The notes below the pieces were generated by a model that worked only from the letters and a program-made list of their open reading frames with translations, had not been told where the DNA came from and did no database searches. Of a stretch of 64,000 nt of DNA, positions 16,531 through 62,288 are shown piece after piece (positions within the stretch are counted from its first letter, which is position 1; the number at the start of each line of letters is the position of its first letter). The translations under genes were made by a program, and so were the position numbers. Source of the stretch: a bacterium (lineage in GTDB: Bacteria; Patescibacteriota; Microgenomatia; Woykebacterales; RBG-16-39-9b); assembly GCA_030704665.1 (NCBI GenBank), contig JAUYID010000009.1, positions 330,460-394,459 on the forward strand, in the 5' to 3' direction.

Positions 16531-17580
16531 ATGAGCGTACCAAAAGGCAAACTTGTCACCATCGATATTGGTTCTTCCTGGACAAAAGTTTTTGTCATTG
16601 ATCATGACCGTGGCAACAAACTGGCGATTGGGGGTAGCTACAGTCTTCCAACCTCGAGCGGAGACCTGAAACTCTCTATCGAAGAAATTTTTCAAAAACT
16701 AAAAATCATTCCGAAAGAAAATGTTTTGCTTTTCTCAAGCAGCTTTGAAGAAGCTGATAGTCTTGCCAGCGACTATAAGGGAATTTTCGTTCCTTTGGCT
16801 GAAATAAAGAAAAACTTGGGAGTGTGGCTCAAACAGCAAGGCTACCCAAACTGCAAATTTTTTGACGCGGGTAGTGATATTTTTAAAGCTGACTACAAAG
16901 TAAACGAACTTGGGGCTTTCCTTTCCTTTTCGTTTGGAGAAATTGATCTGGAAAACCATCTTGCCAATCGAGCCATGCATTTTCATACTTTAGCTGAAAC
17001 TCAGAAGGAAATGGAGACGGACCGGGCGGTAATACGCTCTGCTCTCGCGAAACTCGAGGACAGCCTGAATGAGGCGAGCAACGTCTTGATGACGGGAGCT
17101 TTGGTTGCTGCTCAGACCAAGTTTTCAAAACTTGCCTTGGTCATGCTTGACGTTTTGAGTCCACACAAAGTGGCTGAAGTTTTGGTTGATACCAAAAACT
17201 TTGCGAACAGTTGGGGAGCGGCAATTACTAAATATAAAGAACTGCTCGATTTCGAAATCGATTTTGTGGAAAAACTAGGTAGTTTTGTTTCCTTGGGTGG
17301 GGAGGGAACAGTTGGCTTGGACTACGGACTGAAAAATGTGCAGGAAGTCAAGGTCGCCGAAAATGAGATTGCTTTGATCCCAGCCAATGAGGAACAAGAA
17401 GTTCAGGTTGAGTTTTCCATTGGCAAAGAAAAGCGTAAAGTGGAAACCGGTGGAGGACACTACGGAATTTTGCTAGACGGAAGAAAAAAACCTTTACCGC
17501 TGATTTTTGGACAGTCGTCTTCCCAAAAAGCAATGTTGAAATGGGAAGAAGCAATTGAAAAAGTGGAGCTGATCAAATGA
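16531..17580 (+). CDS. Hypothetical protein; N-terminus (LVTIDIGSSWTKVFVI) faintly resembles the phosphate-1 motif of actin-like (ASKHA) ATPases
   Basis: 349-aa ORF with an upstream promoter (TTGGGC-16-TGgTATAAT). Overlaps the next ORF by 4 nt. Confidence 0.5.
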   Translation: MSVPKGKLVTIDIGSSWTKVFVIDHDRGNKLAIGGSYSLPTSSGDLKLSIEEIFQKLKIIPKENVLLFSSSFEEADSLASDYKGIFVPLAEIKKNLGVWLKQQGYPNCKFFDAGSDIFKADYKVNELGAFLSFSFGEIDLENHLANRAMHFHTLAETQKEMETDRAVIRSALAKLEDSLNEASNVLMTGALVAAQTKFSKLALVMLDVLSPHKVAEVLVDTKNFANSWGAAITKYKELLDFEIDFVEKLGSFVSLGGEGTVGLDYGLKNVQEVKVAENEIALIPANEEQEVQVEFSIGKEKRKVETGGGHYGILLDGRKKPLPLIFGQSSSQKAMLKWEEAIEKVELIK

Positions 17581-18635
17581 TCAATCCCACTATCTTGCGT
17601 ATCGGGTCGAGTTCTTATGATCTGGTCAGAAAATTTCCCGGAAAGGGTAAGGCCAGTGTTAAAGTTGGGGACAGTGTGGCCGCAGCTGATATCGTGGCCC
17701 ATTGCGAAGTTTCGGCGGGACAAAGACTAGTAAAAGTGGCACACAGTTTGGGAGTGGGCGCGCGCGAGGTAGAAAAATATTTGATCCGTTCGGTAGGAGA
17801 CAGAATTTACCAGGGGGAAGTGATTGCCCGTAGAACTGGAGTACTTGGCTTGGGTAAAAAAGAGGTCAAGTCGCCAGCCGATGGTTTGATTTTTGGTGTC
17901 GATGTCAACGGAGACTTGATCATCAAATTCATGCCGACTTCGATTCGCCTCGCAGCCGGAGCAAGTGGTAAAGTGACTGATGTGTCCGAAGACGGTGTGA
18001 CGATTTCAACTAATGTGACTGAAGTTGCCGCCCCGATCGCTTCCGGAAAAGAACGGGACGGAGCGCTAAAGGTGGTTGGTTCCCACAATGATTTTCTTTT
18101 GCCTCAGCACATTGATGCTTCGGCGAGTGGAAAAATTATCGTCGGTGGAGCCCTAGTCGAGCGGGCGACGATCGAAAAAGCACTGACTGTAGGTGTGCAC
18201 GGTATCGTTGTCGGAGGAATAAACTACCGTGATTTTTTAAGCCTTGGTGTTGGTAGTGATGTCGGTTTGACGGTTTTAGTTACTTGCGGCTACGGGGCCT
18301 TTCCAATGGGGGAGGATATTCACGATAAGCTCAAAGCCCTCGAGGGTTATTTTGCTTTTATTTCTGGAGAAAAGGCTAAACTGGTAATCCCCGATCTTAA
18401 TGCCAAAACAACCAAAGCCAATCAACCTAGTGTGGAGAGCTGGAAGAAGCTTGGTGTCGGGGATAAAGTTAGGGTTCTCCATGAAAAAGAAGAAAAACTC
18501 CTCGGCAAAGTTTTGGAGTTGAAAGAAAACCAAGTGCTTCCTTCGACCGTGATCGCCGAAACTGCTCTTGTTGAGTTGACTGACGGAAAAAAGGTTGAAG
18601 TGGCAGCAGCCAATTTGCAAATTGTTTTTAGCTAA
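17577..18635 (+). CDS. Hypothetical protein (352 aa), Gly/Val-rich, no family recognised
   Basis: ORF translationally coupled (ATGA) to the preceding gene, followed 2 nt later by the S41 protease gene. Confidence 0.5.
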   Translation: MINPTILRIGSSSYDLVRKFPGKGKASVKVGDSVAAADIVAHCEVSAGQRLVKVAHSLGVGAREVEKYLIRSVGDRIYQGEVIARRTGVLGLGKKEVKSPADGLIFGVDVNGDLIIKFMPTSIRLAAGASGKVTDVSEDGVTISTNVTEVAAPIASGKERDGALKVVGSHNDFLLPQHIDASASGKIIVGGALVERATIEKALTVGVHGIVVGGINYRDFLSLGVGSDVGLTVLVTCGYGAFPMGEDIHDKLKALEGYFAFISGEKAKLVIPDLNAKTTKANQPSVESWKKLGVGDKVRVLHEKEEKLLGKVLELKENQVLPSTVIAETALVELTDGKKVEVAAANLQIVFS

Positions 18636-18637
18636 AA

Positions 18638-19867
18638 ATGAAAGAAAAAATCAAAAGCCTAATAGTTAAACATTACGTTCAAGCGGTTGGGGCCCTGGTA
18701 CTTTTTGCTCTTGGAGTTTGGATCGGGCAAAACTTTGACATCAACGTCGGCCAAAAAACTACCCGTGGTGAGTTCAAACCCCTGATCAGTCTCAGCAATC
18801 GTCAAACTCCGACAAATACTACGGTCAGTTTCAACCAGTTTTGGGAAGTTTGGGATCATCTAACCAGTGAGTACCTGAACAAAAATGATATTGACCAACA
18901 AAAACTTCTTTACGGAGCAATCTCAGGTTTGGTTGAAGCGGCTGGAGATCCCTACACTGTTTACCTTGACCCAGAGTCCAACAAAGACTTTGATTCGCAG
19001 CTCAACGGTACTTTTGAGGGGGTGGGGATTGAGATTGGTTCCAAGGACGGCAAACTTGTCGTCATCTCACCAATTGAAGGCACACCAGCGATGGAAGCTG
19101 GGGTACTGGCGGGGGATATCATCACCAAAATTGACGGTAAGGACGCTTCCAGCCTGTCACTAGTAGAGGCAGTCAAAACTATTCGTGGGCAAGCGGGCAC
19201 CCCCGTCCATTTTGTTTTTTCACGAGCCGGGAAACTAGTTAACAAGACCATCACTCGTACCAAAATCACCATCAAGAGTGTTGAGTTTGCCAACAAAGGA
19301 GAGGAAGTTGCTGTGATCCGGATTAATCGCTTCGGAGACTCAACTCAGGAAGAGTGGGACAGTGCGGTGAACAAATTTACTTCGGGGAAGTTCCAAAAAC
19401 TTATTCTCGATCTGCGCAACAATCCTGGTGGCAGACTGGATACTGCCATTTACATTGCCAATGAGTTTGTCGCAGCCGGAACTAGTGTAGTTTTGGAAGA
19501 AGACTCGGGTGGAAACAGACAGGAATTTAAAGGTGAGCGTAACGGGCGCCTGCAAGAGATTACCCCAGTAGTTTTGCTCAATAAAGGCAGTGCCTCAGCT
19601 TCTGAAATTGTCGCCGGAGCCCTAAGAGACTTGAAAGGTGCACCTCTGCTCGGGGAAACCAGCTATGGAAAAGGGACGGTCCAAAAAGTTGAAGATTTGG
19701 AGGCAGGTGCAGCTCTACATATCACTATCGCTAAATGGCTTACCCCCAAAGGAATTTGGGTTCATGGTAAAGGGCTCAAGCCCGATACCGAAGTTAAACT
19801 AACCGCCAAAGACATCAAAGCAAACAAAGATCCCCAACTAGAGGCAGCCCTCAAACTGCTAAAATAA
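18638..19867 (+). CDS. C-terminal processing (S41, CtpA/Prc-like) serine protease with PDZ domain, N-terminal TM anchor
   Basis: PDZ segment GVGIEIGSKDGKLVVISPIEGTPAMEAGVLAGDIITKIDGK; S41 motifs NPGGRLDTA and NKGSASASEIVAGAL. Confidence 0.85.
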   Translation: MKEKIKSLIVKHYVQAVGALVLFALGVWIGQNFDINVGQKTTRGEFKPLISLSNRQTPTNTTVSFNQFWEVWDHLTSEYLNKNDIDQQKLLYGAISGLVEAAGDPYTVYLDPESNKDFDSQLNGTFEGVGIEIGSKDGKLVVISPIEGTPAMEAGVLAGDIITKIDGKDASSLSLVEAVKTIRGQAGTPVHFVFSRAGKLVNKTITRTKITIKSVEFANKGEEVAVIRINRFGDSTQEEWDSAVNKFTSGKFQKLILDLRNNPGGRLDTAIYIANEFVAAGTSVVLEEDSGGNRQEFKGERNGRLQEITPVVLLNKGSASASEIVAGALRDLKGAPLLGETSYGKGTVQKVEDLEAGAALHITIAKWLTPKGIWVHGKGLKPDTEVKLTAKDIKANKDPQLEAALKLLK

Positions 19868-21523: not shown

Positions 21524-22672
21524 ATGCCCGAAGAAAAAAAGAGACTTTACATCAAAATAGGGGTTTTGCTGGGAGCGGTTCTACTCACTGGGCTGATCGG
21601 TGGGGTGGTCGCCTCTTCTTACCCAAACTGGTACAGTTCCCTTCCTTTCAAAAACTCTCTACCAAACTTTTTAAAACCCCCCGACTCAGAGGTCAACTCA
21701 AGTAAAGAAGTAGTCCGCACTGTTGAGGAATCGGCCGTCATCGACGCAGTTGAGGAGGCTTCTCCTTCGGTCGTTTCCATCATTGCCAAGACAGTAAACT
21801 TTGACCCGGCCCTTGGAGTCGTGACTGACCAACAAGGTATTGGGACCGGCTTTATCGTTGATTCTTCAGGAATTGTCATTACCAACAACCATGTCGTTTG
21901 TGAAACGGGAATTGATTACAACGTCCTGACCAAAGACGGCAAAAGCTACGCCGTGACAAAAATTGATACGGACCCAGCTAATGACGTTGCTATTCTCAAG
22001 ATCAAAGGTAGCAGCTTCCAAGCACTTGCCCTTGCCGATTCAGACCCAAAGATCTTAAAAGTCGGACAAAAAGTCATTGCCATTGGCAATGCTCTAGGAC
22101 AGTTTCAGAATACAGTCACTGTTGGAGTCATTTCCGGTATTGGTCGGGGAGTGACTGCTCAGGGAGGTTGCGGGGGACAATCGGAAGAAACATTGCAAAA
22201 TGTGATTCAAACTGATGCTGCTCTCAACCCGGGGAATTCTGGCGGACCCCTGCTCGATTTGAGTGGAAAGGTGGTTGGCGTGAACTTTGCCGTTTCCACC
22301 AGTGCCCAAAACATCGGCTTTGTCATTCCGATCAACCGGGTCAAAAAAATTCTTGATCAGTACAAAAAAGAAGGCCGCATCATCCGTCCTTTCTTGGGGA
22401 TTCGTTATCGTTTGATTGACCCTCAGGAATCTGCGGCCCGCAGTGTTCCGCAGGGAGCGTTTGTTTCTAGTGTGGTGGTGGCTTCACCCGCAGCCACTGC
22501 AGGTATTGAGGTAGGCGATATCATCACCAAGCTCAACAAGCAAAAGGTGAGTTTAAGTAACGATATTGTTACCATTTTGAATGATGTGGTTGTAGGTAAG
22601 GAAATTTCAGTCGAGGTCTACCGGAATGGGAGAAGCATTGCTCTCAAAATTGTTCCTCGAGAAGCGGACTAA
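21524..22672 (+). CDS. HtrA/DegP-family trypsin-like serine protease with C-terminal PDZ domain, N-terminal TM anchor
   Basis: GTGFIVDSSGIVITNNHVV (His), DVAILKI (Asp), GNSGGPLLD (Ser); PDZ in the C-terminal 100 aa. Confidence 0.9.
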   Translation: MPEEKKRLYIKIGVLLGAVLLTGLIGGVVASSYPNWYSSLPFKNSLPNFLKPPDSEVNSSKEVVRTVEESAVIDAVEEASPSVVSIIAKTVNFDPALGVVTDQQGIGTGFIVDSSGIVITNNHVVCETGIDYNVLTKDGKSYAVTKIDTDPANDVAILKIKGSSFQALALADSDPKILKVGQKVIAIGNALGQFQNTVTVGVISGIGRGVTAQGGCGGQSEETLQNVIQTDAALNPGNSGGPLLDLSGKVVGVNFAVSTSAQNIGFVIPINRVKKILDQYKKEGRIIRPFLGIRYRLIDPQESAARSVPQGAFVSSVVVASPAATAGIEVGDIITKLNKQKVSLSNDIVTILNDVVVGKEISVEVYRNGRSIALKIVPREAD

Positions 22673-22713
22673 AATCATTTGACAGCAGCAGGCATTTCAC
22701 GCTTTAATATAAA

Positions 22714-23253
22714 TTGATGTCTGACAACGGTTTATTTGGACTACCCAGCTTCCGACGTAGAATTGGAGTAGTCGCCTCTTTGTTCATTCTTTTTGCTATT
22801 CCAGTCACAGTCATTGCCACTTTGCAAGGCCGTTCCGATCTCTCCCGGGCCGCGGCTTGTCTGGATATCAGCAATGACGGTGGCGTTGACTCAGCTGATA
22901 GCAGTCTCTTGAAGAATCAAATTGAGACCAAGATCTATTCAAAGGCAAGCGACTTTGATAGTGATGGGGTGGTAAACGAAACTGACCAGCTGATTCTAAA
23001 CGAAAGTTTGGGCGAAACCTGCTCACCACAAGTAACCTTCTTTGCTAGTCCGGATAGTATCAAGATAGGTGAAAGTGCTGTTTTGACCTGGACGGTTGCT
23101 CACGCGAGCAAAGTCGAGATTGAGGGGGTCGGAGAGGTTGCTAAAGAAGGCGAAATCAAAGTTAACCCAACTGAAAGTAAAACTTACCAATTGAGCGCAA
23201 GCGGCCCCGGTGGGCAAGTAGTTGGGGCCTCAACCCTAAAAGTCACCCATTAA
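22714..23253 (+). CDS. Secreted protein with a dockerin-like double Ca-binding repeat (DISNDGGVDSAD…DFDSDGVVNETD) followed by an Ig-like domain
   Basis: Signal-anchor N-terminus. Both 12-residue loops fit the D-x-[DNS]-x-D-G-x-[VI]-[DN]-x-x-D dockerin/EF-hand-like pattern and are spaced ~29 residues apart. Confidence 0.55.
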   Translation: MMSDNGLFGLPSFRRRIGVVASLFILFAIPVTVIATLQGRSDLSRAAACLDISNDGGVDSADSSLLKNQIETKIYSKASDFDSDGVVNETDQLILNESLGETCSPQVTFFASPDSIKIGESAVLTWTVAHASKVEIEGVGEVAKEGEIKVNPTESKTYQLSASGPGGQVVGASTLKVTH

Positions 23254-23296
23254 TTCTCTTTGACAGGTTAGATCCGTCTTGTTAGCATATTAATTA

Positions 23297-24919
23297 ATGC
23301 CCAAGATTCAAGTGGCGAAAAAACTTTGGTTCTCTCTTTTTGTTGTTCTAGTACTTTTTGTCTCTGTCATTTTTACCCAACTGGCGAGTTTGAACAGCCG
23401 TGATACACGCACGCAAGCAGCCTCGGCTCCAACTACAGTGACTTGGACCGATCCGATCCGCTTCCGCGATACTGTTTGTTTGCACGGAACCAGTGTTTGT
23501 CAGCCTTTTCATACAACGACCTCTACTTCAGATACTTGGACGGTAGCTGACAATGTCAGCTATGATCTCCACGTTGATGTGAGTAAAGACGGCTCAACTT
23601 GGTACGGTTGGGAGCAAAACAACAATTTGAGCAAGGATTGTCCCGGTTCGACCTGCTCAAGAACCTTTAGTTGGGCTCAAGTGGACTTTGTGGTGCGCAC
23701 GACAATCGACAACATTGATCACGCGGTGAGAAGACCGACAACAAGCTATACTTACAGTTCAGCTCCGCCGAATTTTAGCTACACTGGTAGTGTAGTTTTC
23801 CACTATTTGGACAATTTAAGTCCTCAGGGAATTACGATCAAGAATTTGTCGGGTAATACCGGTCCTTGTACTGTCAGTTGTCCGGTTCCACCACCAAGTG
23901 TTGATATCAAGGCAAACAATTCAGATAGCTCAATTACGATTCCCTACAACTCAAGTGTGACGATAAAATGGACTTCCTCCGGCTCACCAACCTCTTGTTC
24001 AGTTTCACCGACCGGTTGGACTGGAACGAGCGGTCAGCAGAGCCAAACTCTGACCTCAGCGCGTACTTACAAGGCGACTTGTAGTAACAGTGGCGGAAGC
24101 GATTCAGACTCAGTGACTGTCAATGTAAGTGCTCCGGGTGCTCCTTCAGTCAACATCAAAGCCAATGGCTCCGATGGCCCAATCAAAATTACCAAAGGCA
24201 AAACCGTGACGATCAGTTGGACCAGTGGGGCCAACACCACTTCATGTACGATTGCGCCGTTTGGTTGGACCGGGTTGAGCGGGTCAAAAAGTAGTGGGGC
24301 ATTGAGTAAATCGACCACCTTCAAAGCTAGTTGTACTGGTCCTGGGGGGAGTGGGTCAGATTCAGTTGTAGTCAATGTCGAGACCGCCTCAACTAGTCCA
24401 ACTAGCGGTAGTTCTGTTCCGATCATCAAAAGCACGACTCCGAAGACAACTTCAATAAGTAAAGACGCACTTGCCGGGTCAAAAACCAAGGTTACTTCGA
24501 AGACAGCCTTGGATATTGTTTTAAGCAGTGGGACCAACCGCTTTTTGATTGGAGCTAAAGAAGTTAGGGTTTCAATCACTGCGACCAAAGTCAGCAAAAA
24601 ACTGGTTATCAACCACGACAACGAGTATTTTAGAATCAGTGCCTCTGAACTGAAGGTTGGTAAAATTTACACTTTGGAAATTTCTGGAGACTGGCTTGTT
24701 TCTCAGACCCAACGTTTCAAAGTAAACGCAAAGGGAACCAATTTAAAGCTAGAACCACTTATTATCGGGGATTTGACCGGCGAAGGTCGGATCAATGACG
24801 ATGATATTTTTGAGTTTTTGAACGGCTTTCTCAGCGATAAATTTTATGATTTTAATGTTGATGGGGTAGTCAACAGTTTTGATTACTCTATTTTGATTGG
24901 CAACTCGGAAGGAACCTAA
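23297..24919 (+). CDS. Secreted Ser/Thr-rich protein with two tandem ~85-aa Ig-like repeats and a C-terminal dockerin-like module (DLTGEGRINDDD…DFNVDGVVNSFD)
   Basis: Signal-anchor; internal repeats VDIKANNSDSSITIPYNSSVTIKWTSSG…/VNIKANGSDGPIKITKGKTVTISWTSGA…. C-terminal 120 aa paralogous to the next gene. Confidence 0.55.
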   Translation: MPKIQVAKKLWFSLFVVLVLFVSVIFTQLASLNSRDTRTQAASAPTTVTWTDPIRFRDTVCLHGTSVCQPFHTTTSTSDTWTVADNVSYDLHVDVSKDGSTWYGWEQNNNLSKDCPGSTCSRTFSWAQVDFVVRTTIDNIDHAVRRPTTSYTYSSAPPNFSYTGSVVFHYLDNLSPQGITIKNLSGNTGPCTVSCPVPPPSVDIKANNSDSSITIPYNSSVTIKWTSSGSPTSCSVSPTGWTGTSGQQSQTLTSARTYKATCSNSGGSDSDSVTVNVSAPGAPSVNIKANGSDGPIKITKGKTVTISWTSGANTTSCTIAPFGWTGLSGSKSSGALSKSTTFKASCTGPGGSGSDSVVVNVETASTSPTSGSSVPIIKSTTPKTTSISKDALAGSKTKVTSKTALDIVLSSGTNRFLIGAKEVRVSITATKVSKKLVINHDNEYFRISASELKVGKIYTLEISGDWLVSQTQRFKVNAKGTNLKLEPLIIGDLTGEGRINDDDIFEFLNGFLSDKFYDFNVDGVVNSFDYSILIGNSEGT

Positions 24920-24960
24920 GTTTTTGACAAGGGGAAAACCCCCTGCTAGCATGTATTTAA

Positions 24961-26301
24961 GTGAGCAAGTTTGGAAAATTTCAAAAACGAAGAGTTTGGC
25001 TCAGCCTTATTACTACCTTTGTTCTATTGGGGGCAATTGTGTTTACTCAATTTGCTGCTAAAAACTCTGGCGATTTGCGTATCAAAGCAGCTACCTGCGC
25101 TTCAGGAGAAAATTTGGTGAGTCTACGTCCAGTTGCCAACAGCTACGTCAAGCTTTGGTCCCAAAGTCCCAGTAGCGGTACAGAGTTTGACAAGGTAGAT
25201 GAGGCAGTTGCTGATGGAAATAATACTTATATCTGGGATGATACGAAACCTTCCAATTTCGTGGCTTTTTCTCACCAAAGCCTAAGTTTGAGTTCAGACA
25301 AAGCTGTCAAAAGGGTTGCTGTTTACCTCGTCGCCAGAAGAAGCGGTAATGCCGCCAGTGTGGCGCCCGGACTTTATCTGGGAGGTAATTTTTACTCTGG
25401 AACTACAAATTCGGCTGGGCCCAATTACTCAGAGTACAGCAACACTTGGCTTTCCAATCCAGCTGGTGGGTCTTGGACCGCCAGTTCGGTAAATTCGGCG
25501 GGTGTGGCTGCCCGTTCCAGTCGAGTCAATCAGGGAAACGCACTCTCGATCACGCAAATGTGGATGGATGTTTGTTGGGTTTATAAAGCTCCGATGGTTA
25601 ATATCAAGGCCAATGGTTCCAACGGGCCAATTACTATTCCCTACAACAGCGCCGCAACTTTGAGTTGGAGTAGTAGCTACGCTACTTCTTGCCCTGGTTT
25701 TTCAGCTACGAGTGGTTCCAAATCAATCGGTAAACTGACCTCGTCGCGGACTTTTAGTATTACTTGTACGGGTAAGGGGGGAAGCGGAAGCGACTCGGTC
25801 AGAGTCAACCTTTCGGCTCCTCCTACTTCGGGTGGTGGCGGTTCTGATTCTAGCCCCCCACCCTCGTCTGGAGGCGAAACAAAGGCAAAGCCGACGGTTG
25901 CTAGTATTAGTCTCCGAACCTCAGCCAACGCGTTTTTGATAAATGGTAAAGAAGTCGAGGCAACCATCAAAGGTACAAGCGTCACCAAAAAGGTTACCTT
26001 TTCCAAAGATGCGACTAGCGTTAGTCTTAAGACCTCGGCTTTAACCGTGGGTAAAACCTATATTTTGGAACTCAAAACTCCGTGGTTACTTACACAAAAC
26101 TTTAGTTTCAAGCTAAAATCAGGGGTGAAATTGGCTGCAGGGCCTTTGATTTTTGGGGATGTAACCGCAGACAACAGAATATCGGAAACTGATATAGTAG
26201 AGTTTTTGGCGGGTTTTATCAACGATCAAAACTACGATTTTAACGCAGATGGGGTGGTCAACAGTTTTGATTATTCAATTTTGATTAACAACCTAAAATG
26301 A
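24961..26301 (+). CDS. Paralogous secreted protein with one Ig-like repeat and a C-terminal dockerin-like module (DVTADNRISETD…DFNADGVVNSFD)
   Basis: C-terminal region ~50% identical to that of 23297..24919; the same VNIKANGSNGPITIPYNS repeat type. Confidence 0.55.
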   Translation: MSKFGKFQKRRVWLSLITTFVLLGAIVFTQFAAKNSGDLRIKAATCASGENLVSLRPVANSYVKLWSQSPSSGTEFDKVDEAVADGNNTYIWDDTKPSNFVAFSHQSLSLSSDKAVKRVAVYLVARRSGNAASVAPGLYLGGNFYSGTTNSAGPNYSEYSNTWLSNPAGGSWTASSVNSAGVAARSSRVNQGNALSITQMWMDVCWVYKAPMVNIKANGSNGPITIPYNSAATLSWSSSYATSCPGFSATSGSKSIGKLTSSRTFSITCTGKGGSGSDSVRVNLSAPPTSGGGGSDSSPPPSSGGETKAKPTVASISLRTSANAFLINGKEVEATIKGTSVTKKVTFSKDATSVSLKTSALTVGKTYILELKTPWLLTQNFSFKLKSGVKLAAGPLIFGDVTADNRISETDIVEFLAGFINDQNYDFNADGVVNSFDYSILINNLK

Positions 26302-27242
26302 AAAAACAGAGACGACAATTTTACTTTTTTAACAAAGTCATGACCGCAGGCTTTTGTTTACTGGTCTTTTTGGCTTTGGCCAAGGCAGCTTCCGCTGCGG
26401 GTTTATCGCTTACTCCAAGTTCAGGCAACGTGAAATCAGGAGAAGAGCTTAAAGTTCAACTTGTTCTTGATACTGACAGTACTGAGACAGTTGATGGAGC
26501 TGATGCTATCCTCACTTTTGATGACAACCGACTCAAGCCAAAGGAAGTAAAGTCAACTGGAGAATTTAGCAATTTGATTACCAAAGAAAGTCCAGGGAGA
26601 CTACAAATCACCGCTTTAGCTTCCAAAGAAGGGCAAAATTTTGAAACCTCGATTCCTCTCGCCGAAGTGACCTTCACTATTCTTCAGTCAGGTGTAGCTG
26701 CGGTTGGTTTTGATTTTAGCGAAGGCTCGACGACTGATTCAAATGTAGTCCAGCACAAAACCCTCAAAGACATTCTCCAAAGCGTCAACGGCGGAAACTA
26801 TTCTGTGACAGCGACTCCTGGGCAACAAACGGTCAGTCTTTTGAAAAGGATTTTTCCAATTTTGATCATAATCTTTGTCCTGTTCTTAATCGGGTTTGGG
26901 GTTTTCTGGTTCGTCCGAAGAGGGGGTTTTGGTTTCTTTGGTGGAGGAGGGCAGGATGAGGATGTCTTTTATCCAGAATCAGTGCCAATGGACGAAGTTC
27001 CAAAGGATGTAGAAATTCCAAGTGGGCAGCCTCTGACAGCTCAGGGCCAAGAAGAGCAGACGGCTGCCTCACTACCAACTGAGACCGCGGCAGCTGACTC
27101 GCAACCGCCTGTTTCTGTCCCACCAGGTCCTGAGGAAACTCCCGAACAACAGTCATCGGACCAGCCCTACAACGCCTGGACCGCCGCCCCACCGCCAACA
27201 AATCAGCCTCCGACTCCGCCGGTGAGTGGAGAGGGTAGCTAA
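26298..27242 (+). CDS. Type-I membrane protein with an extracellular cohesin-like beta-sandwich domain, single TM, Pro/Thr/Gln-rich cytoplasmic tail
   Basis: Signal peptide, then TPSSGNVKSGEELKVQLVLDT…AILTFDDNRLKP…AEVTFTILQSGVAAVGFDF resembling cohesin modules. TM IFPILIIIFVLFLIGFGVFWFV. Overlaps the upstream dockerin gene (ATGA). Confidence 0.45.
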   Translation: MKKQRRQFYFFNKVMTAGFCLLVFLALAKAASAAGLSLTPSSGNVKSGEELKVQLVLDTDSTETVDGADAILTFDDNRLKPKEVKSTGEFSNLITKESPGRLQITALASKEGQNFETSIPLAEVTFTILQSGVAAVGFDFSEGSTTDSNVVQHKTLKDILQSVNGGNYSVTATPGQQTVSLLKRIFPILIIIFVLFLIGFGVFWFVRRGGFGFFGGGGQDEDVFYPESVPMDEVPKDVEIPSGQPLTAQGQEEQTAASLPTETAAADSQPPVSVPPGPEETPEQQSSDQPYNAWTAAPPPTNQPPTPPVSGEGS

Positions 27243-30380: not shown

Positions 30381-30926
30381 ATGAATGAACCTGCCCAGGC
30401 TGCTTCGATTGAGCATGGCTTGCCCAAAGGAGCAGAAACAGCTTCAACCTTTTCTACTTCTCTGGAAACAAATCCCCCGCAACCCCAAGTTGAGGTGAGA
30501 CCACAACTAAGCAATGAACAGCAAGAGGCTGACGAAGCACGAAGAATTCAAGAGTTAACCAGCCAAGTTCGTCAAGCTCAAGAACGGACGGAAGAACCAG
30601 TAAATTTTGCTCAGAGCCTCGAAAAAAGAGCTGAGGTACTAAACAAGCAAGCAACTGGTCTGCGGGCAGAACACGAGCCAGTAGACAAAGGACCCAGTGT
30701 CAGTCCAGCCACACACTTCCTTTTGGAGGCGGAAGAAAGAAGAGCCGCTCACTTAGCTGCCTTGGTTGGGGTAGATGCCACCGAGCCAGTCAAGCAAGAG
30801 AAACAAGTGCCCCCTCCGACTCAAGACAGAGGGGAAGCTGCTCCGAGCACCCCAACTAACTTAGAAGATAAAGCTAGAGCACTAGAAGCGCAATTTGAAA
30901 GTGGCGGAGGGCAAAAGGCTGCCTGA
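30381..30926 (+). CDS. Hypothetical Gln/Glu-rich predicted coiled-coil protein, stop overlaps the start of the following ATPase (ATGA)
   Basis: 181-aa ORF, low complexity; translationally coupled to 30926..33418. Confidence 0.5.
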   Translation: MNEPAQAASIEHGLPKGAETASTFSTSLETNPPQPQVEVRPQLSNEQQEADEARRIQELTSQVRQAQERTEEPVNFAQSLEKRAEVLNKQATGLRAEHEPVDKGPSVSPATHFLLEAEERRAAHLAALVGVDATEPVKQEKQVPPPTQDRGEAAPSTPTNLEDKARALEAQFESGGGQKAA

Positions 30927-33418
30927 TGTTTGATTTTACTGTTTACGCACAGACTCCAAATTCTCCTGATCTGGGCCAAAGTCTTTTGGGTTTGACGGTT
31001 TTGGTTTTAAGCCTACTTTTTGGCTTGGTTCTCTTTGCCCTTTTACCCTTTGCTTTTATCCTTTTTCGTCGTTACCAAAAAAGAGAGAAGCGTAGTTGGG
31101 ATTACGTGCTCTTGCAGGTAAAACCGACCAAGTACAACGAAATTAAAATCGAAGCCGCGGAAGCGATGTTCGCTTCTTTCTACGGACTTTTTCGGGCGGG
31201 TGCCCAGGGTTGGATAAAGGGGCAGGATCACATCGGGTTTGAGATTGTTTCCAAAAATGGCGAAATTGTTTTTTATGTTTCTACCCCCAATGAGCTTTCC
31301 GACCTAGTTGAAAAGCAAATCCACAGCTTTTACCCTGAAGCAGAGATTGTCCCAGTTCCGGACTACACAATCTCAACTGGAAAATATACTGATATCGTGG
31401 AGCTGTCTTTAAAGGCCAAAGCTTTCAAGCCAATCCGGCGCTTTAAAGAGTTTGGGGAGGACGTTGACCCGATGAACTCAATCACAACGGCTCTCTCCAA
31501 ACTTGAGCAAGGAGAAGCAGCAGCTTTACAGATACTGATTGCTCCGGCGGGAAGTGGCTGGCAAGGCCGCGGTTTTCGTGAAATTCACAGAGTCCAGACG
31601 AGTGCCTCAAGCTCAATTACTGCCCAAATCGGCAAAAGTATTACCAGCCCCGGGCAACCCCAACAGCCTGATCTACAACAACCCGAGGCTAGAACCAATT
31701 CAGTGACTATGGACCCTTACAAAAAAATTGAAGAAAAATCCTCAAAGCCTGGTTTTGACACCGTGATCCGTTTCGTGGTTTGCGCGAACAACAAATACAA
31801 CGCTGAAGTTTATATCAACAATATGATTGGCTCTTTCGCGCAGTTTGCTGATCCGGTAGGCAACGGTTTTCGGCGCCGTCGTTGGCCTTGGACTCTGACC
31901 AAAAAACAATCTCTTTCTGATTTCGTCAACCACATCATGCCCCTATTTTTTGGCAAAATGATTCTTAATACTGATGAGCTGGCAACAGTTTTTCATTTTC
32001 CCAGCAAAAAGGTCATGACCCCGAACATTATCTGGGCACTAGCCAAAAAATCCGCAGCCCCAACCACCGTTCCTAGCCAAGGTTTGTACCTTGGTAAAAG
32101 TGTCTTTCGGGGAGTGGAAACCCCGATCAGAATTACCGAGGATGATCGCCGTCGCCATACTTACATCATCGGGCAAACCGGTACTGGAAAAAGTGAGCTG
32201 CTCAAGCACCTGGCTTACCAAGACATTGTTGAAGGCAAAGGGGTGGCTTTTATCGATCCTCATGGGAGCGCAATTGAGGATTTGATCAATATGATTCCAG
32301 CTTCTCGAGCCGAAGACGTGATTCTTTTCGACGCGGGCGATACAGAAAGGCCGCTTGGACTCAATATTCTCGAGGGTGAAACTGACGAACAGAAAAACAT
32401 GGTGGTGAACTCTTTTATTGCCTTGCTCTACAAACTCTATGATCCAAAAAAAGTTGGCATCATGGGACCGAGATTGGAGCGGGCCATTCGCAACGTCATG
32501 CTTACGGCTATGGTGGAGAAAGGGAACACTTTGGTAGAAGTTTTGCGCTTGCTCATCGATCCGAAATTTGTTCAGGAGAAACTGCCGCTCATTACCGACC
32601 CCTTAGTACGTAGATATTGGACCGATGAGATCGCTCAAACTTCGGACTTTCATAAAAGCGAAACCATGGGTTACTTCGTTTCCAAATTTGACCGTTTCGT
32701 CACTGACAAACTGTTGCGCAATATTGTCGGTCAAAGTCAATCGGCTTTTGATTTTCGCAAATTGATGGACGAAGGCAAGATTTTGCTTGTTGACCTCTCC
32801 AAAGGAAAAATAGGGGATGAGAATTCCAATTTCTTGGGACTGATCTTAGTTCCAAGAATCCTCATCGCCGCCATGAGCCGGATTGATGTACCTGAGGAGC
32901 AACGCCGTGACTTTTATCTCTACGTGGACGAGTTTCAGAACTTTGCTACTCCTGACTTTGCGGTCATTCTTTCGGAAGCGAGAAAGTATCACCTCAACTT
33001 GACTGTCGCCAACCAGTTTATTGCTCAAATCGAGCAGGATATCAAAGACGCGGTTTTTGGTAACGTTGGAACTACGATTGCCTTCCGAGTCGGTATTGAT
33101 GACGCTACTTACCTGGAACATCAGTTTGAACCGGTTTTCAACAAGCAAGATCTGATCAACAACCCGATCGGGCACGCCTACATTCGCCTGCTCGTCAAGG
33201 GTCAACCGACGCCACCGTTTTCTTTTTCAACTGATTGGAACCAGATTCAGGGAATTGCCAGAAACAAAGAAACCGGCTCGGCCATTGCTGAGCTCTCTCG
33301 ACTCAGATTCGGAAAAGATAAAAATATTGTTGAAGCTGAAATAAATCGGCGGGCGGAGCTGGATAAACCAGTCCCCCTACAAAAACCAAATCCAGAGCCG
33401 ATCACAAAAAATGTTTAG
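30926..33418 (+). CDS. Membrane-anchored FtsK/HerA/VirD4-superfamily P-loop NTPase (type IV coupling-protein-like, TraG-D_C-type C-terminus)
   Basis: N-terminal TM; Walker A YIIGQTGTGKSEL, then AFIDPHGS…VILFDAGD…LGLNIL (coupling-protein-like pattern), Walker B YLYVDEFQNF, then ARKYHLNLTVANQFIAQ…GNVGTTIAFRVGIDDATYL. Paralogue of 59340..62288. Confidence 0.6.
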   Translation: MFDFTVYAQTPNSPDLGQSLLGLTVLVLSLLFGLVLFALLPFAFILFRRYQKREKRSWDYVLLQVKPTKYNEIKIEAAEAMFASFYGLFRAGAQGWIKGQDHIGFEIVSKNGEIVFYVSTPNELSDLVEKQIHSFYPEAEIVPVPDYTISTGKYTDIVELSLKAKAFKPIRRFKEFGEDVDPMNSITTALSKLEQGEAAALQILIAPAGSGWQGRGFREIHRVQTSASSSITAQIGKSITSPGQPQQPDLQQPEARTNSVTMDPYKKIEEKSSKPGFDTVIRFVVCANNKYNAEVYINNMIGSFAQFADPVGNGFRRRRWPWTLTKKQSLSDFVNHIMPLFFGKMILNTDELATVFHFPSKKVMTPNIIWALAKKSAAPTTVPSQGLYLGKSVFRGVETPIRITEDDRRRHTYIIGQTGTGKSELLKHLAYQDIVEGKGVAFIDPHGSAIEDLINMIPASRAEDVILFDAGDTERPLGLNILEGETDEQKNMVVNSFIALLYKLYDPKKVGIMGPRLERAIRNVMLTAMVEKGNTLVEVLRLLIDPKFVQEKLPLITDPLVRRYWTDEIAQTSDFHKSETMGYFVSKFDRFVTDKLLRNIVGQSQSAFDFRKLMDEGKILLVDLSKGKIGDENSNFLGLILVPRILIAAMSRIDVPEEQRRDFYLYVDEFQNFATPDFAVILSEARKYHLNLTVANQFIAQIEQDIKDAVFGNVGTTIAFRVGIDDATYLEHQFEPVFNKQDLINNPIGHAYIRLLVKGQPTPPFSFSTDWNQIQGIARNKETGSAIAELSRLRFGKDKNIVEAEINRRAELDKPVPLQKPNPEPITKNV

Positions 33419-59339: not shown

Positions 59340-62288
59340 ATGGCTCCATTGTACTTTCTTGCGATCATAGTGATTTTGGCGATTTGTTTCTTCTTTGCTT
59401 GGAGAGCGGCGCGCAGAATTGAGATTGGTGACCGCAAGTCGCAAATACAACAAGGTATTCTACTTTCAATCCAACTCCCAAAAGAAAACGAAAAACTTCC
59501 GGTGGCGGCCGAACAGATGTTCGCGTCTCTTCATGGTTTGTTACGGTTTACCCCGGATGCCCAAGAGCATATTTCTTTGGAAATGGCTTCGTCGGTGGAT
59601 GGTTTACGATTTTATGTCTATACTCCAACTGAGTTTAAAAGTTTTGTTGAGAGTCAAATTTACGCTCAATACCCAACTGCTGAAATTCGCGAGGCTGTCG
59701 ACTACACCAAAAGTATCGGGGACAACTCCCACGTGGCGGCTTCTGAGATAACTTTAAGCAAAGACTTCATTTTTCCCATTAAAACTTTCCGAGATTTTGA
59801 AGTTGATCCGCTCGCAGCGATTACAAGTGCCCTTTCTTCCTTGGGAAATAGTGAGCAACTTTGGTTACAAATACTAGTTCGTCCTGTTGATGACTTTTGG
59901 CAGGACCGCGGCCATGAATACGTAAAACTAGTTAGAGAAGGAACTCACCCGGTTAGTATCAACCCACAAGACATAATTATTGATGTTGGAAAACAAATAG
60001 TTTCTGTTGGAGCGAATATTTTCCCTTATATCGCCAAAGGCCCAACTCCAGTCGACCCTCATCCCGGGCCGGTCCGGACACCACCGCCTCCAAGGCTCTC
60101 CGCCGGCCAAGAACTCGAGCTCAAAATGATTGAAAACAAACTTTCTAAGATAGGTTTTGAGACCAAAATACGAGCTGTGGCTGTAGCGCAAAGTGAAGAT
60201 TCCGCCCGCCAAAAACTAGGAGGAATACTTGGCGCCTTTAAGCAGTTTACGACGGCAAATTTGAACGGGTTTATAGCTGACTCAGATTCTCCTTCCTCCT
60301 CTGCTGTTGTCACCAGTTTTCAACAGCGCTCTTTCCCAGAGAAAGAGAGTGGAGACTTTATTCTTGACATTGAGGAGTTGGCCTCTATTTTCCACTTACC
60401 GAACTTGTCAGTTGAAACCCCGACTATTTCTTGGACCCGAGCCAAGAAGGGGGAGCCACCACTCAACCTCCCAACAGAAAACGCTACTCTCTTGGGAGAG
60501 ACTATGTACCGCGACTTAAGTACTAGATTTGGAATCAAAAAAGCAGATCGTCGCAAACACATGTACTTAATCGGAAAAACTGGAGTAGGGAAGTCCACCC
60601 TGATCAAAAATATGATCATTCAGGATATGCGTAATGGTGAAGGTGTTGCAGTCTTGGATCCTCACGGGCAACTTATAGAGGAACTTTTGGAATTTGTACC
60701 GGAAAATCGAATTGATGACGTCGTTATTTTCAACCCAGCCGATGCAGATTATCCGGTCTCTCTCAACATGTTGGAGATGGTGGATCCAAGACAACGAACC
60801 TTAATGGCCGACTCCTTGGTTGATGTCTTTAAAAAATACTTTGCGAACTCTTGGGGACCGCGACTTGAGTATATTTTAAAAAACTGTATTTTGACCCTTC
60901 TTGAGGTTCCGAATACTTCTTTGCTTTCAATTACTCGGCTTTTGACCGATAAAGACTATCGGAAATTTATCGTTGATAAAATTAATGATCCGCAGATGAA
61001 AGCTTTTTGGAGGGACGAGTACGCTCGGATGGAGCAAAACGAAAGATTAATTACTGAGGCTATCAGTCCGATTCAAAATAAAGTAGGGCAGTTTTTAAAT
61101 TCAGAGTTAATCCGCAACATTGTGGGACAAGCCAAGAGTACAATTAAAGTCGACGATATCATTAACAGACGCAAGCTGTTTTTTGTAAACCTAGCCTCGG
61201 GTCGTATTGGAGCCAACAACACGTCTTTGTTGGGAGCGATGATTGTTTCCCAGCTTCAATTTGCAGCCATGCGACGGGTTGATATTCCAGAACAGCAACG
61301 AGTCGATTTCTTTCTTTATGCCGACGAGTTTCAGAGCTTTGCGACTGAGAGTTTTGCCGTTATTCTTTCTGAAGCACGTAAATACCGCCTAGATTTGACT
61401 ATTACCCATCAATATATTGAACAAATGCCTGAAGAAGTGCGCGACGCCATTTTTGGTAACGTTGGTACCTTGATTTGTTTTGGGGTAGGAAATCAAGACG
61501 CTCATTTCCTTGAGAGAGAGTTTTCTCCAGTTTTTTTGGAAAACGACTTTATCAACTTGGGTCGTTTTGAAATGTATTTAAAACTTCAGATTGATGATTT
61601 TTCCTCAACACCGTTTTCGGCCCGCTCTCTGGCTCCTTATACTGATGCAACCAACCTTCACGAGCGAGCGGTTCAGATTTCCAGAATGAACTATTCCAGA
61701 CCAGTTGAGAGGGTAGAGAAGATGATTAAAAAATGGACTGAAACCAAGTTTCGTCTTGGCCAGCCGCCACTTCTTCCGGCCTGGGCAGTTGAGGAGGAAA
61801 AGCAAGCTCTTATTTCCGGACGGGAAATAGACTCTCCGGTTGAAGGAGAAGTTATCCCAACCCTAGAAACTACCACTCCTCCAACGGAACAATCTTTATC
61901 GATCCCGGTTCCTTTGCAAGAACAGCAGGTTAGACTAGAGACGATTCCTGAAACGGGGCCGCTGGGCGTTCCTGAAGTTTCTCAGACACCAGTTTCTGAA
62001 CCAGCGGTGAGTCCACCACTGCCCGTAAGCGAACTAGCTGATTCGGACCAAGAAGAAAAAGTCGAAAAGGCTCCGTCCGTGGGGGCCCAAGTCTCTCAAA
62101 CCAACTTAGAACCTCAGCTCCCAGCGCCTGCAGATCTAGCACCGCCTGTTTTTTCGCGGGAAAATACTGGCCTTGGTTTAGGACAGAGCGTTGGTTCAAG
62201 TGGTGAAGTGGAAATCTTTCGTTTTCCTATCCAACAACCAAGCCAAAAAGAATCAGAGTCAGGCGAAATTTTGATGCCGAGAAGATAA
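59340..62288 (+). CDS. Second membrane-anchored VirD4/TraG/FtsK-HerA-like P-loop NTPase (paralogue of 30926..33418) with a ~180-aa Pro/Glu-rich C-terminal tail
   Basis: Walker A MYLIGKTGVGKSTL; VAVLDPHGQ…VVIFNPADADYPVSLNML; Walker B FFLYADEFQSF; ARKYRLDLTITHQYIEQ…GNVGTLICFGVGNQDAHFL; N-terminal TM. Confidence 0.6.
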   Translation: MAPLYFLAIIVILAICFFFAWRAARRIEIGDRKSQIQQGILLSIQLPKENEKLPVAAEQMFASLHGLLRFTPDAQEHISLEMASSVDGLRFYVYTPTEFKSFVESQIYAQYPTAEIREAVDYTKSIGDNSHVAASEITLSKDFIFPIKTFRDFEVDPLAAITSALSSLGNSEQLWLQILVRPVDDFWQDRGHEYVKLVREGTHPVSINPQDIIIDVGKQIVSVGANIFPYIAKGPTPVDPHPGPVRTPPPPRLSAGQELELKMIENKLSKIGFETKIRAVAVAQSEDSARQKLGGILGAFKQFTTANLNGFIADSDSPSSSAVVTSFQQRSFPEKESGDFILDIEELASIFHLPNLSVETPTISWTRAKKGEPPLNLPTENATLLGETMYRDLSTRFGIKKADRRKHMYLIGKTGVGKSTLIKNMIIQDMRNGEGVAVLDPHGQLIEELLEFVPENRIDDVVIFNPADADYPVSLNMLEMVDPRQRTLMADSLVDVFKKYFANSWGPRLEYILKNCILTLLEVPNTSLLSITRLLTDKDYRKFIVDKINDPQMKAFWRDEYARMEQNERLITEAISPIQNKVGQFLNSELIRNIVGQAKSTIKVDDIINRRKLFFVNLASGRIGANNTSLLGAMIVSQLQFAAMRRVDIPEQQRVDFFLYADEFQSFATESFAVILSEARKYRLDLTITHQYIEQMPEEVRDAIFGNVGTLICFGVGNQDAHFLEREFSPVFLENDFINLGRFEMYLKLQIDDFSSTPFSARSLAPYTDATNLHERAVQISRMNYSRPVERVEKMIKKWTETKFRLGQPPLLPAWAVEEEKQALISGREIDSPVEGEVIPTLETTTPPTEQSLSIPVPLQEQQVRLETIPETGPLGVPEVSQTPVSEPAVSPPLPVSELADSDQEEKVEKAPSVGAQVSQTNLEPQLPAPADLAPPVFSRENTGLGLGQSVGSSGEVEIFRFPIQQPSQKESESGEILMPRR

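Follow-up and report, generated by a model that had tools for sequence, protein, structure and literature searches.

What does a cohesin do beside a row of dockerin proteins in a small-genome bacterium? Cohesin and dockerin are the hallmark modules of the cellulosome, and their joint presence is readily taken as a sign of polysaccharide degradation. The genes that raise this question here, p1 to p4, lie in a 64,000-nucleotide stretch of contig JAUYID010000009.1 from a member of the Patescibacteriota (the whole stretch, 64 kb in length, is referred to as the window). A sequence-only reading of this DNA had proposed that three consecutive genes encode dockerin proteins, that the fourth encodes a cell-bound cohesin, and that the system more plausibly tethers proteins to the cell surface than degrades cellulose. 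In outline this has held: four plus-strand open reading frames (ORFs) are present in that order (Table 1), and a six-frame motif scan of the entire window places paired calcium loops in the p1, p2, and p3 ORFs and nowhere else. Taken together, the results described below have led to the view that p1 to p4 probably constitute a genuine but non-cellulosomal cohesin-dockerin module, by which adhesin-like, non-catalytic proteins are attached to the cell surface.

The domain calls as such are ordinary and in part already annotated (Table 1). The added value lies in an adhesin architecture built on an X-module and dockerin (X-Doc), in a conserved motif in the cytoplasmic tail of the cohesin protein, and in a cassette that is conserved across the lineage, all of which go beyond the earlier reading.

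In the proposed mechanism, p4 would be exported by the Sec system, its signal peptide would be cut after ASA, and it would become a type I membrane protein, its one cohesin raised outside the cell on a short stalk and its tail of 108 residues inside. The proteins p1, p2, and p3 would be exported by way of a common N-terminal leader, and their Ca2+-loaded dockerins would then plug into the single p4 cohesin, competing for it. The dockerin of p2 and p3 would be buttressed by the X-module, as in anchoring type II and type III dockerins, and that of p1 would be stapled by a Cys-Cys clasp. Thus, interchangeable heads would be presented on immunoglobulin (Ig)-like stalks: a jelly-roll of a kind also present in phage proteins (p3), a Cys-rich head (p2), or a bare Ig domain (p1). 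The most likely target of these heads would be a ligand on a surface, for example a glycan or protein carried by a partner or host cell, or a substrate. In addition, the cytoplasmic motif of p4 may contact a partner within the cell.

Table 1. Coordinates of the p1 to p4 module, its promoter-like sites, and neighbouring genes (positions in the window; aa, amino acids; TM, transmembrane)
Feature	Position	Strand	Remarks
p1, small dockerin protein	22717..23253	+	178 aa; NCBI MDP2671221.1 (178 aa), named "dockerin type I domain-containing protein"
p1 hydrophobic leader	22762-22824		
p1 leader region	22762-22857	+	
p1 dockerin and Cys pair	22858-23022		
p1 calcium loops (12 residues each)	22864-22899, 22951-22986		
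p1 Ig-like domain	23026-23247		one domain
p2, large dockerin protein	23297..24919	+	540 aa; NCBI MDP2671222.1 (540 aa), named hypothetical protein
p2 leader/TM segment	23324-23386		
p2 leader region	23324-23425	+	
p2 head, type B	23426-23881		Cys-rich
p2 Ig-like repeats	23894-24130, 24143-24382		
p2 linker			Ser/Thr/Pro
p2 X-module	24506-24766		
p2 dockerin	24767-24916		
p2 calcium loops (12 residues each)	24770-24805, 24848-24883		
p3, large dockerin protein	24961..26301	+	446 aa, GTG start; NCBI MDP2671223.1 (446 aa), named hypothetical protein
p3 leader/TM segment	24994-25056		
p3 leader region	24994-25095	+	
p3 head, type A	25096-25584		jelly-roll
p3 Ig-like repeat	25591-25815		
p3 linker			Gly/Ser/Pro
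p3 X-module	25897-26154		
p3 dockerin	26155-26298		
p3 calcium loops (12 residues each)	26158-26193, 26236-26271		
p4, membrane-anchored cohesin	26298..27242	+	314 aa; NCBI MDP2671224.1 (314 aa), named "cohesin domain-containing protein"
p4 signal peptide	26298-26396	+	ends ASA, next residue A
p4 cohesin fold	26397-26816	+	
p4 TTDSN(V) patch	26730-26744		residues 145-149
p4 TM helix	26850-26915	+	residues 185-206
p4 tail, predicted cytoplasmic	26916-27239	+	108 aa
p4 juxtamembrane motif	26958..27002	+	EDVFYPESVPMDEVP; consensus (D/E)(V/I)F(Y/V/I)P-x1-2-(V/F)P(L/M)D-xx-P
p4 tail peptide			QDEDVFYPESVPMDEVPK
Promoter-like site before p1	22679..22708	+	TTGACA, 18 nt, TTTAAT; read from the sequence (absent from the scan list because of a T in the second place of the -10 element)
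Promoter-like site before p2	23260..23288	+	TTGACA, 17 nt, TG-TAGCAT; promoter scan 10/12, extended -10
Promoter-like site before p3	24924..24952	+	hexamers and spacing as before p2; promoter scan 10/12
HtrA-type serine protease	21524..22672	+	Trypsin_2 and PDZ (Pfam matches); directly upstream of p1
Two uncharacterised proteins and a CtpB-like S41 peptidase	16531-19867		upstream of HtrA; the two proteins adjacent, 349 and 352 aa
First coupling-ATPase gene	30926-33418		TraG/VirD4/TrwB-like
Second coupling-ATPase gene	59340-62288		TraG/VirD4/TrwB-like

The dockerins and the X-module

The six 12-residue loops quoted in the sequence-only reading are present letter for letter, and they belong to dockerins rather than to generic calcium loops. 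Both p1 and p3 exceed the gathering cutoff of Pfam Dockerin_1 (PF00404; 22.9 bits), with 35.2 bits (E=1.4e-8) and 27.5 bits (E=3.8e-6), respectively. The best PDB sequence matches of p1 are the dockerins 2y3n_B, 2vn5_B, and 1ohz_B, and for p1 and p3 together the best matches are solved cellulosomal dockerins (these three with 1daq and 2mte). Loop 2 is canonical (D-x-D/N-x-D/N-G-x-I/V-x-x-x-D) in p1, p2, and p3. Furthermore, in an AlphaFold2 (AF2) model of mature p3, made with a 7-sequence multiple sequence alignment (MSA), a helix follows each calcium loop (model residues 370-379 and 396-406), giving the order loop-helix-loop-helix. An alignment of 18 sequences (1438 columns) was left out of the structure prediction because it was too gappy.

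The p3 model also reveals what lies in front of the dockerin. With a predicted local distance difference test (pLDDT) score of 66-84 in this region, it shows an ~86-residue beta domain (residues 313-398) that abuts the dockerin at G399-D400. When the model was compared with the PDB by Foldseek, the only matches at E<1e-3 were X-Doc dyads (5k39_B, 5m0y_B, 2b59_B, and 4u3s_B, and the CipA Coh9-X-Doc structures 4fl4 and 3kcp), with E=2e-6 to 2e-4 over ~155 aligned columns, TM-scores on the target (TMt) of 0.54-0.59, and 17-22% identity. Because these are the sole fold matches at that level, the C-terminal ~135 residues of p2 and p3 are, as modelled, an X-module-dockerin dyad, an arrangement that is used elsewhere for cell-surface anchoring. 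The assignment extends to p2, whose X-Doc region is clearly paralogous to that of p3 and also aligns with p3 orthologues; a local XDoc hidden Markov model (HMM) gives E=9e-57 on the identical copy of p2 in locus L001.

Among the p3 fold matches, the best are the type II X-Doc dyads of Clostridium thermocellum (CipA/CipB; 2b59, 5k39, 5m0y, and 4fl4), with E=2e-6 to 7e-5, TMt 0.56-0.59, and 19-22% identity. Their role is anchoring to the cell surface, as is proposed for p2 and p3. In C. thermocellum, the X-Doc is carried by an enzyme-loaded, multi-cohesin scaffoldin, and its partner is a type II cohesin on an S-layer homology (SLH) protein. In contrast, the module described here has a cohesin closest to type I, a shorter dockerin spacer, and no scaffoldin.

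Two features of these dockerins bear on how they might bind. First, across 16 X-Doc sequences, conservation is far stronger in segment 2 (D.N.DG..NS.D and helix 3) than in segment 1, and the near-perfect internal two-fold symmetry of a dockerin is absent. This asymmetry argues for a single binding face and against a symmetric dual mode, and so suggests that these dockerins have one binding mode. Second, a Cys pair, C-[LY]-D ... C-[SV]-P, flanks the p1 dockerin on both sides and is conserved in the copies of the window, L002, and L005. An "intramolecular clasp" is known to join the termini of dockerins (PMC3821032), and by analogy the Cys pair of p1 may be a covalent version of it.

The membrane-anchored cohesin

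The ectodomain of p4 had been described as a cohesin-like beta-sandwich, and both sequence and structure prediction agree. Residues 44-150 match Pfam Cohesin (PF00963) with 25.7 bits (E=1.5e-5; gathering cutoff 24.1), and the p4 relatives P0003 and P0004 reach 39 and 37 bits. An AF2 model of residues 30-186, based on a 120-sequence MSA, is all-beta and without a helix (pLDDT 82.7, pTM 0.79). Its best 50 Foldseek matches in the PDB are all cohesins, and its jelly-roll sandwich is superimposable on solved cohesins; the best match is 6kgf_C (E=1e-10, TM-score on the query [TMq] 0.71, TMt 0.75). Non-cellulosomal cohesins are included among the matches (Archaeoglobus fulgidus 2xdh; Clostridium perfringens 2vo8 and 2jh2). 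The predicted model lies closer to type I cohesins (E=1e-10) than to those of types II and III (~1e-6). Sequence searches of the PDB were less informative: phmmer with the single sequences of p4 and p2 yielded nothing useful, and a profile of the cohesin family gave weak matches only (7urp, 4e-4; 4ums, 5e-3).

A TTDSN(V) patch in p4 is nearly invariant in the family of small cohesins, including the second cohesin of the Daviesbacteria cassette described below. It falls in a loop of the p4 model with lower confidence (pLDDT ~63-65) and is a candidate dockerin-contact or calcium site.

The layout predicted for p4, namely signal peptide, cohesin, and one TM helix, also stands. However, the tail had been called Pro/Thr-rich, and it is more than that, because a conserved motif, EDVFYPESVPMDEVP, lies at its beginning. 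In p4-type anchors, which were found at eight independent loci, the order is a signal peptide, one cohesin, a stalk of ~12 residues, an internal TM helix, a cluster of Lys and Arg residues, and a tail. By the positive-inside rule, the Lys/Arg cluster right after the TM helix would place the tail in the cytoplasm. A regular expression for the motif, which was derived from the same p4-type sequences, has 11 matches in ~950,000 ORF residues, all in p4-type tails at the eight loci, and none in residue shuffles. In the alignment of p4-type proteins (24-48% identity), five of the 23 invariant columns fall within the 15 residues of the motif, which by this measure is the most densely conserved segment of the protein. 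Such conservation suggests that p4 has an intracellular partner. There is no LPXTG motif in p4; the internal TM helix and the tail that follows it are not the arrangement of a sortase-signal wall anchor.

Heads, stalks, and cargo

As had been proposed, p2 and p3 are tandem paralogues (~36-39% identity). They have in common the leader, Ig-like repeats of ~80 residues (two in p2, one in p3), a low-complexity linker, the beta domain now assigned as an X-module, and the C-terminal dockerin. The relationship does not extend to their N-terminal heads, which are unrelated to each other. The Cys-rich type B head occurs in p2 and in P0127, the p2 orthologue of L005; sequence searches found no Pfam, PHROG, or PDB match for the p2 copy. 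The type A head occurs in p3, in a 392-residue protein of L002, and in P0122 and P0123. It is a mobile module of ~155 residues with 623 representative homologues at E<=1e-3 (P0142-P0289 among them). Some of these are proteins of ~170-190 residues that consist of the head alone and have no signal peptide; others are multidomain proteins in which the head is combined with M4 peptidase and Ig domains, BNR_4, LamG, Prophage_tail, or cohesin and dockerin. It is also repeated in giant proteins of up to 3474 residues.

The window copy of the p3 head matches no Pfam family and no PHROG, and a p3-head profile of 26 sequences finds no sequence relative in the PDB. Relatives that consist of the head alone match the C-terminal portions of two families of unknown function, phrog_2448 and phrog_6368. 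In the p3 model, the head is a beta sandwich (pLDDT 77-88). Its fold matches are weak or generic: jelly-rolls, carbohydrate-binding modules (CBMs), phage tail-needle knobs, and viral jelly-rolls, and, in BFVD, uncharacterised and tail proteins of phages. It is plausible that the type A head serves in binding.

If the module were a minimal cellulosome, with polysaccharide-degrading enzymes assembled on the cell surface, then catalytic domains should be found among its cargo. A similar idea is in print: in a metagenome-assembled genome (MAG) of Ca. Shapirobacterales, a member of the Microgenomates, cohesin and dockerin proteins that are expressed in the metaproteome were read as a cellulosome (10.1101/2021.08.21.457207). 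In addition, the p3 head is weakly similar in fold to the CBMs 4qpw, 8xmz, and 4d3l. However, Pfam detects no catalytic domain, and thus no catalytic domain of a carbohydrate-active enzyme, in p1, p2, or p3. A Pfam census of 59 related cargo proteins gave Dockerin_1 in 41 and TIG in 12, with fn3, Big_7, Big_13, SdrD_B, PA14, F5/8-C, TSP_1, and CARDB among the other modules. The same census contains two points that could favour an enzymatic system, a CBM60 in one protein and a reprolysin-like metallopeptidase in another, but no catalytic glycoside hydrolase (GH) family is among the families listed for these 59 proteins. The conserved neighbourhood likewise has no GH genes, and p4 and all eight p4-type anchors carry a single cohesin. 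Since neither a multi-cohesin scaffoldin nor dockerin-bearing enzymes are found in the window, which covers 64 kb of the 938 kb genome, and in related loci, the module does not have the makings of a cellulosome, and this explanation is considered highly improbable. The tethering of non-catalytic proteins, as the earlier reading had preferred, is supported by the same lack of GH catalytic domains.

Some cargo proteins contain both a cohesin and a dockerin and are adaptor-like (L019:4468-6312; P0150). Higher-order cohesin-dockerin chains may thus be formed in some Microgenomates.

Conservation of the locus

The gene order around the module is fixed in five independent loci (the window, L002/L003, L005, L062, and L066): a CtpB-like S41 peptidase, HtrA, one or more dockerin genes, the cohesin gene, and convergent prmC/prfA. 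In some of the five, the S41 peptidase and HtrA are separated by unrelated genes, and HtrA is directly upstream of the dockerin genes in all of them. The order is kept at cohesin identities to p4 as low as 26%, which argues for vertical inheritance of the module as a chromosomal locus, as opposed to an island. The set of dockerin genes varies. The window and L005 have p1, a type B protein (p2 in the window), and a type A protein (p3 in the window); L002 has p1 and a type A protein; L062 has p1 and one large dockerin protein; and L066 has one large dockerin protein only. The p1 orthologues of L002, L005, and L062 are full-length and occupy the same operon position.

This setting raises another possibility, that the module serves the envelope of its own cell, as an S-layer-like coat or an accessory of cell shape or division, rather than adhesion to a partner or substrate. 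Its vertically conserved place in the core genome, beside housekeeping genes and the envelope proteases S41 and HtrA, would fit such a role, as would promoter-like sites that look strong and constitutive. Yet the heads are variable, are swapped between paralogues, and are of kinds common to phage proteins and adhesin-type modules (TIG, PA14, F5/8-C, TSP_1). Modules of this sort are characteristic of recognition rather than of a lattice, and a purely self-directed role is therefore judged rather improbable.

Beyond the five loci, the pairing of dockerin and cohesin genes is widespread. Adjacency of a dockerin gene to a following cohesin gene is kept in the eight independent p4-type loci. The best relative of p4 among GTDB representatives is 39% identical, and a p4-family profile retrieves at least 459 small cohesin proteins, of which those with a name are from Ca. 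Daviesbacteria and Microgenomates. In 56 loci from GTDB species representatives (Daviesbacteria, Microgenomates, and Patescibacteria), local HMMs find a cohesin gene immediately after the gene for a large protein with a dockerin at its C-terminus in 46, with Pfam in agreement on examples, and a dockerin protein followed by two cohesin genes in 44. An earlier count with a paired-loop regular expression had given the impression that dockerin genes are rarely near cohesin genes in the Daviesbacteria loci (~5 of 56); this was a false negative, as the HMMs and Pfam made clear.

The wider, three-gene cassette of Daviesbacteria and Microgenomates, dockerin then cohesin then cohesin, is seen in L007-L061 (e.g., L019:4468-7711, L041:4073-8205, and L054:3942-8154). 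Its first cohesin protein is TM-anchored at the N-terminus. The second combines a signal peptide with a conserved C-terminal sequence, LP(E/P)(G/A)G(T/S)...IVGS(I/V)LT(I/V)LGILGLALL, in which LPxxG is combined with a TM helix. No curated NCBIfam sorting-signal model matches this C-terminus, which by its sequence resembles a new sorting signal. Many of the GTDB MAGs with a Daviesbacteria-type cassette are titled [quoted passage not shown] (L006, L008, L010, L012, L018-L020, L024, L025, and others); these titles look like placeholder or erroneous taxonomy.

Do the dockerins bind the neighbouring cohesin?

Several observations weigh against the tethering of p1, p2, and p3 by p4. The scores are modest, in that the Cohesin score of p4 is 1.6 bits above the cutoff and the Dockerin_1 score of p2 (17.2 bits, E=6e-3) is under it. 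All three dockerins have Ser or Thr at position 3 of loop 1. Classical dockerins have an inter-loop spacer of ~22 residues, and here it is shorter, 14 residues in p2 and p3 and 17 in p1. The p3 model as a whole is only moderately confident (pLDDT 64.6), and the resemblance of its head in fold to CBMs and phage knobs is weak (E=3e-3 to 1e-2). The usual partners of X-Doc dyads are type II or type III cohesins, and the p4 model is closest to type I. Finally, the hydrophobic segments of p1, p2, and p3 are ~21 residues long, and the nearest AxA-like site lies 12-17 residues beyond them.

Such scores near the threshold, and the mismatch between X-Doc and a type I-like cohesin, could mean that the dockerins do not bind p4 at all. 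They would then be calcium-stabilised structural or lectin-like modules, or would have other partners, p4 would bind something else, and the genes would be adjacent because of common export and regulation. The promoter-like site that each of p1, p2, and p3 has for itself is compatible with this idea, and many genomes are described as having dockerin-like modules without a cognate cohesin (PMC9012536). Nevertheless, the adjacency of dockerin and cohesin genes, often with overlapping stop and start codons, persists at cohesin identities of 24-48% and in 46 of the 56 representatives. So persistent a pairing is hard to explain without an interaction, and a lack of binding between the two is judged unlikely.

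The long hydrophobic segments and the distant AxA-like site suggest a different possibility, that p1, p2, and p3 remain membrane-anchored and uncleaved. Each leader consists of the ~21-residue hydrophobic helix and then a conserved polar motif, TQ(F/L)A..NSRD.R.QAA, with no immediate AxA site. (With its leader region, the p1 HMM also picks up the N-terminal ends of dockerin proteins in L065, L070, L075, L090, L105, L116, and L118.) If the leaders are uncleaved signal anchors, then both partners would be bound to membranes, and the dockerin-cohesin contact would either form a loop in cis, as in an envelope lattice or coat, or bridge cells of the same species in trans; in neither case would there be a free head. 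The first cohesin of the Daviesbacteria cassette, which is itself TM-anchored at its N-terminus, would fit such a topology. However, this topology would put the variable head beside the membrane and the conserved dockerin at the distal end, which is odd for a recognition module. Furthermore, the leader motif ends in small residues (AAS, AAT, AAA), which are compatible with cleavage by signal peptidase, and the protein CttA (see below) provides a precedent for a protein that is released and then tethered. The double-anchored arrangement is accordingly given only a small chance, and release of p1, p2, and p3 followed by capture on p4 is still preferred.

Comparison with known systems

By analogy, the closest functional counterpart of the module is the CttA-ScaE pair of Ruminococcus flavefaciens, in which a complex of the CttA XMod-Doc with the cohesin of ScaE (CohE) tethers N-terminal binding modules, which are CBMs, to the cell wall for adhesion and keeps the cell on its substrate (PMC4266597). 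Like CttA, p2 and p3 are non-catalytic, with N-terminal modules and a C-terminal X-Doc dyad, and like ScaE, p4 would be a cell-bound, single-cohesin partner. The purpose of CttA-ScaE is attachment and not catalysis, and the same is proposed here. The differences are nonetheless considerable. ScaE is held by the cell wall of a Gram-positive Firmicute, to which it is attached by sortase, whereas p4 would be held by a TM helix with a conserved cytoplasmic tail. Unlike the modules of CttA, the heads in the window are not recognisable CBMs, and three dockerin proteins are present for one cohesin. In addition, the cohesin is type I-like in spite of the X-Doc, the dockerin is shortened and asymmetric, and the host is a small-genome bacterium of the candidate phyla radiation (CPR) type, with no cellulosome genes seen in the window or related loci.

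Cohesins and dockerins are used outside cellulose degradation elsewhere as well, as in A. fulgidus (2xdh), C. perfringens (2vo8, 2jh2, and 2w1n), and anaerobic methanotrophic (ANME) archaea. Pairs outside the cellulosome are established, and binding has been demonstrated for archaeal ones; the ANME proteins have been proposed to mediate interactions between partner cells (PMC9012536, citing Peer 2009 for the binding). These examples do not share the conserved operon in which dockerin genes precede a TM-anchored single cohesin, and their cargo differs, consisting of glycoside hydrolases or toxins in C. perfringens and of mixed domains in the archaea.

Within the CPR, the sequence-only reading had held that such a system has not been characterised. 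This appears to hold for the operon, since no description of it, or of the wider cassette of a dockerin gene with one or two cohesin genes, was found in the searchable literature. It is less true of the domains, given the NCBI names of p1 and p4 and two reports from the same superphylum in which cohesin or dockerin domains occur on envelope proteins. One is the Shapirobacterales study mentioned above. The other concerns SEML1_0315 of the Saccharibacterium Southlakia epibionticum, an essential envelope protein with a dockerin domain, for which the authors speculated on adhesion or glycan targeting (PMC10633639). The likeness of both to p1 to p4 is one of domain content, and neither study describes this operon, the X-module, the anchor architecture, or the cytoplasmic motif.

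Expression and neighbouring genes

Each of p1, p2, and p3 is preceded by a promoter-like site (Table 1). These are consensus matches, from which promoter function would follow by inference. In all three cases, the -10 element ends 8 nt upstream of the start codon (ATG 22717, ATG 23297, and GTG 24961). This spacing suggests that the mRNAs of p1, p2, and p3 are leaderless or nearly so. The earlier proposal that p4 is translationally coupled to p3 agrees with the overlap of the p3 stop and p4 start codons in ATGA, and p4 would be translated in this way.

For p1, the ORF list offers an alternative start, TTG 22714, one codon upstream; ATG 22717 is likelier and is the start used in NCBI MDP2671221.1. 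The Logan gene calls begin p1 at 22780 (157 aa) and p3 at 25039 (420 aa) and thereby cut the N-terminal hydrophobic helix of both, but the long forms of 178 and 446 residues are backed by NCBI PGAP and by homologues. NCBIfam has no informative family for p1 to p4.

The HtrA protease is a possible quality-control or processing partner of the module, a link suggested by its position. Farther upstream, of the two adjacent uncharacterised proteins, the one of 349 residues has a weak MutL-family match (21.6 bits), and in L002, L005, and L066 genes of similar size to those of this region stand at the corresponding positions. What lies between the S41 peptidase and HtrA is variable, an ATP-grasp gene in the window and purine or ornithine carbamoyltransferase (OTCase) genes in other loci. 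Downstream are two large coupling-ATPase genes. The first, which also carries a DUF8128 flag, has syntenic counterparts in L002, L005, and probably L066 and adjoins a gene for a 991-residue protein without a Pfam match. No rRNA gene was found in the 64 kb.

Significance

A bolder hypothesis would make the p4-type cohesin a transmembrane adhesion receptor. In this model, the motif F-x-P-x2-3-P-x-D-x2-P recruits a cytoplasmic partner, so that the docking of interchangeable X-dockerin adhesins on the outside, or force on them, is coupled to a machine or signal within the cell in an integrin-like manner, and the receptor, together with the lineage-wide cassette of one dockerin and two cohesin genes, is the main organelle of host or partner attachment in Microgenomates-type CPR bacteria. 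This must be regarded as doubtful. A cohesin anchor that carries a conserved motif on its cytoplasmic side, and an X-dockerin that is both compact and asymmetric, would be new building blocks for the cohesin-dockerin field and for the engineering of protein display. Furthermore, the findings argue against the scoring of cohesin and dockerin matches in CPR MAGs as a "cellulosome" or as potential for carbohydrate degradation.

Except for a few Saccharibacteria in culture, little has been learned about how the ultra-small cells of CPR bacteria, or Patescibacteria, attach to their partners or substrates. With four small genes, a known interaction chemistry, and access to recombinant cohesin-dockerin assays, the module offers a compact hypothesis open to testing in vitro, and one that appears to generalise across many species of Microgenomates.

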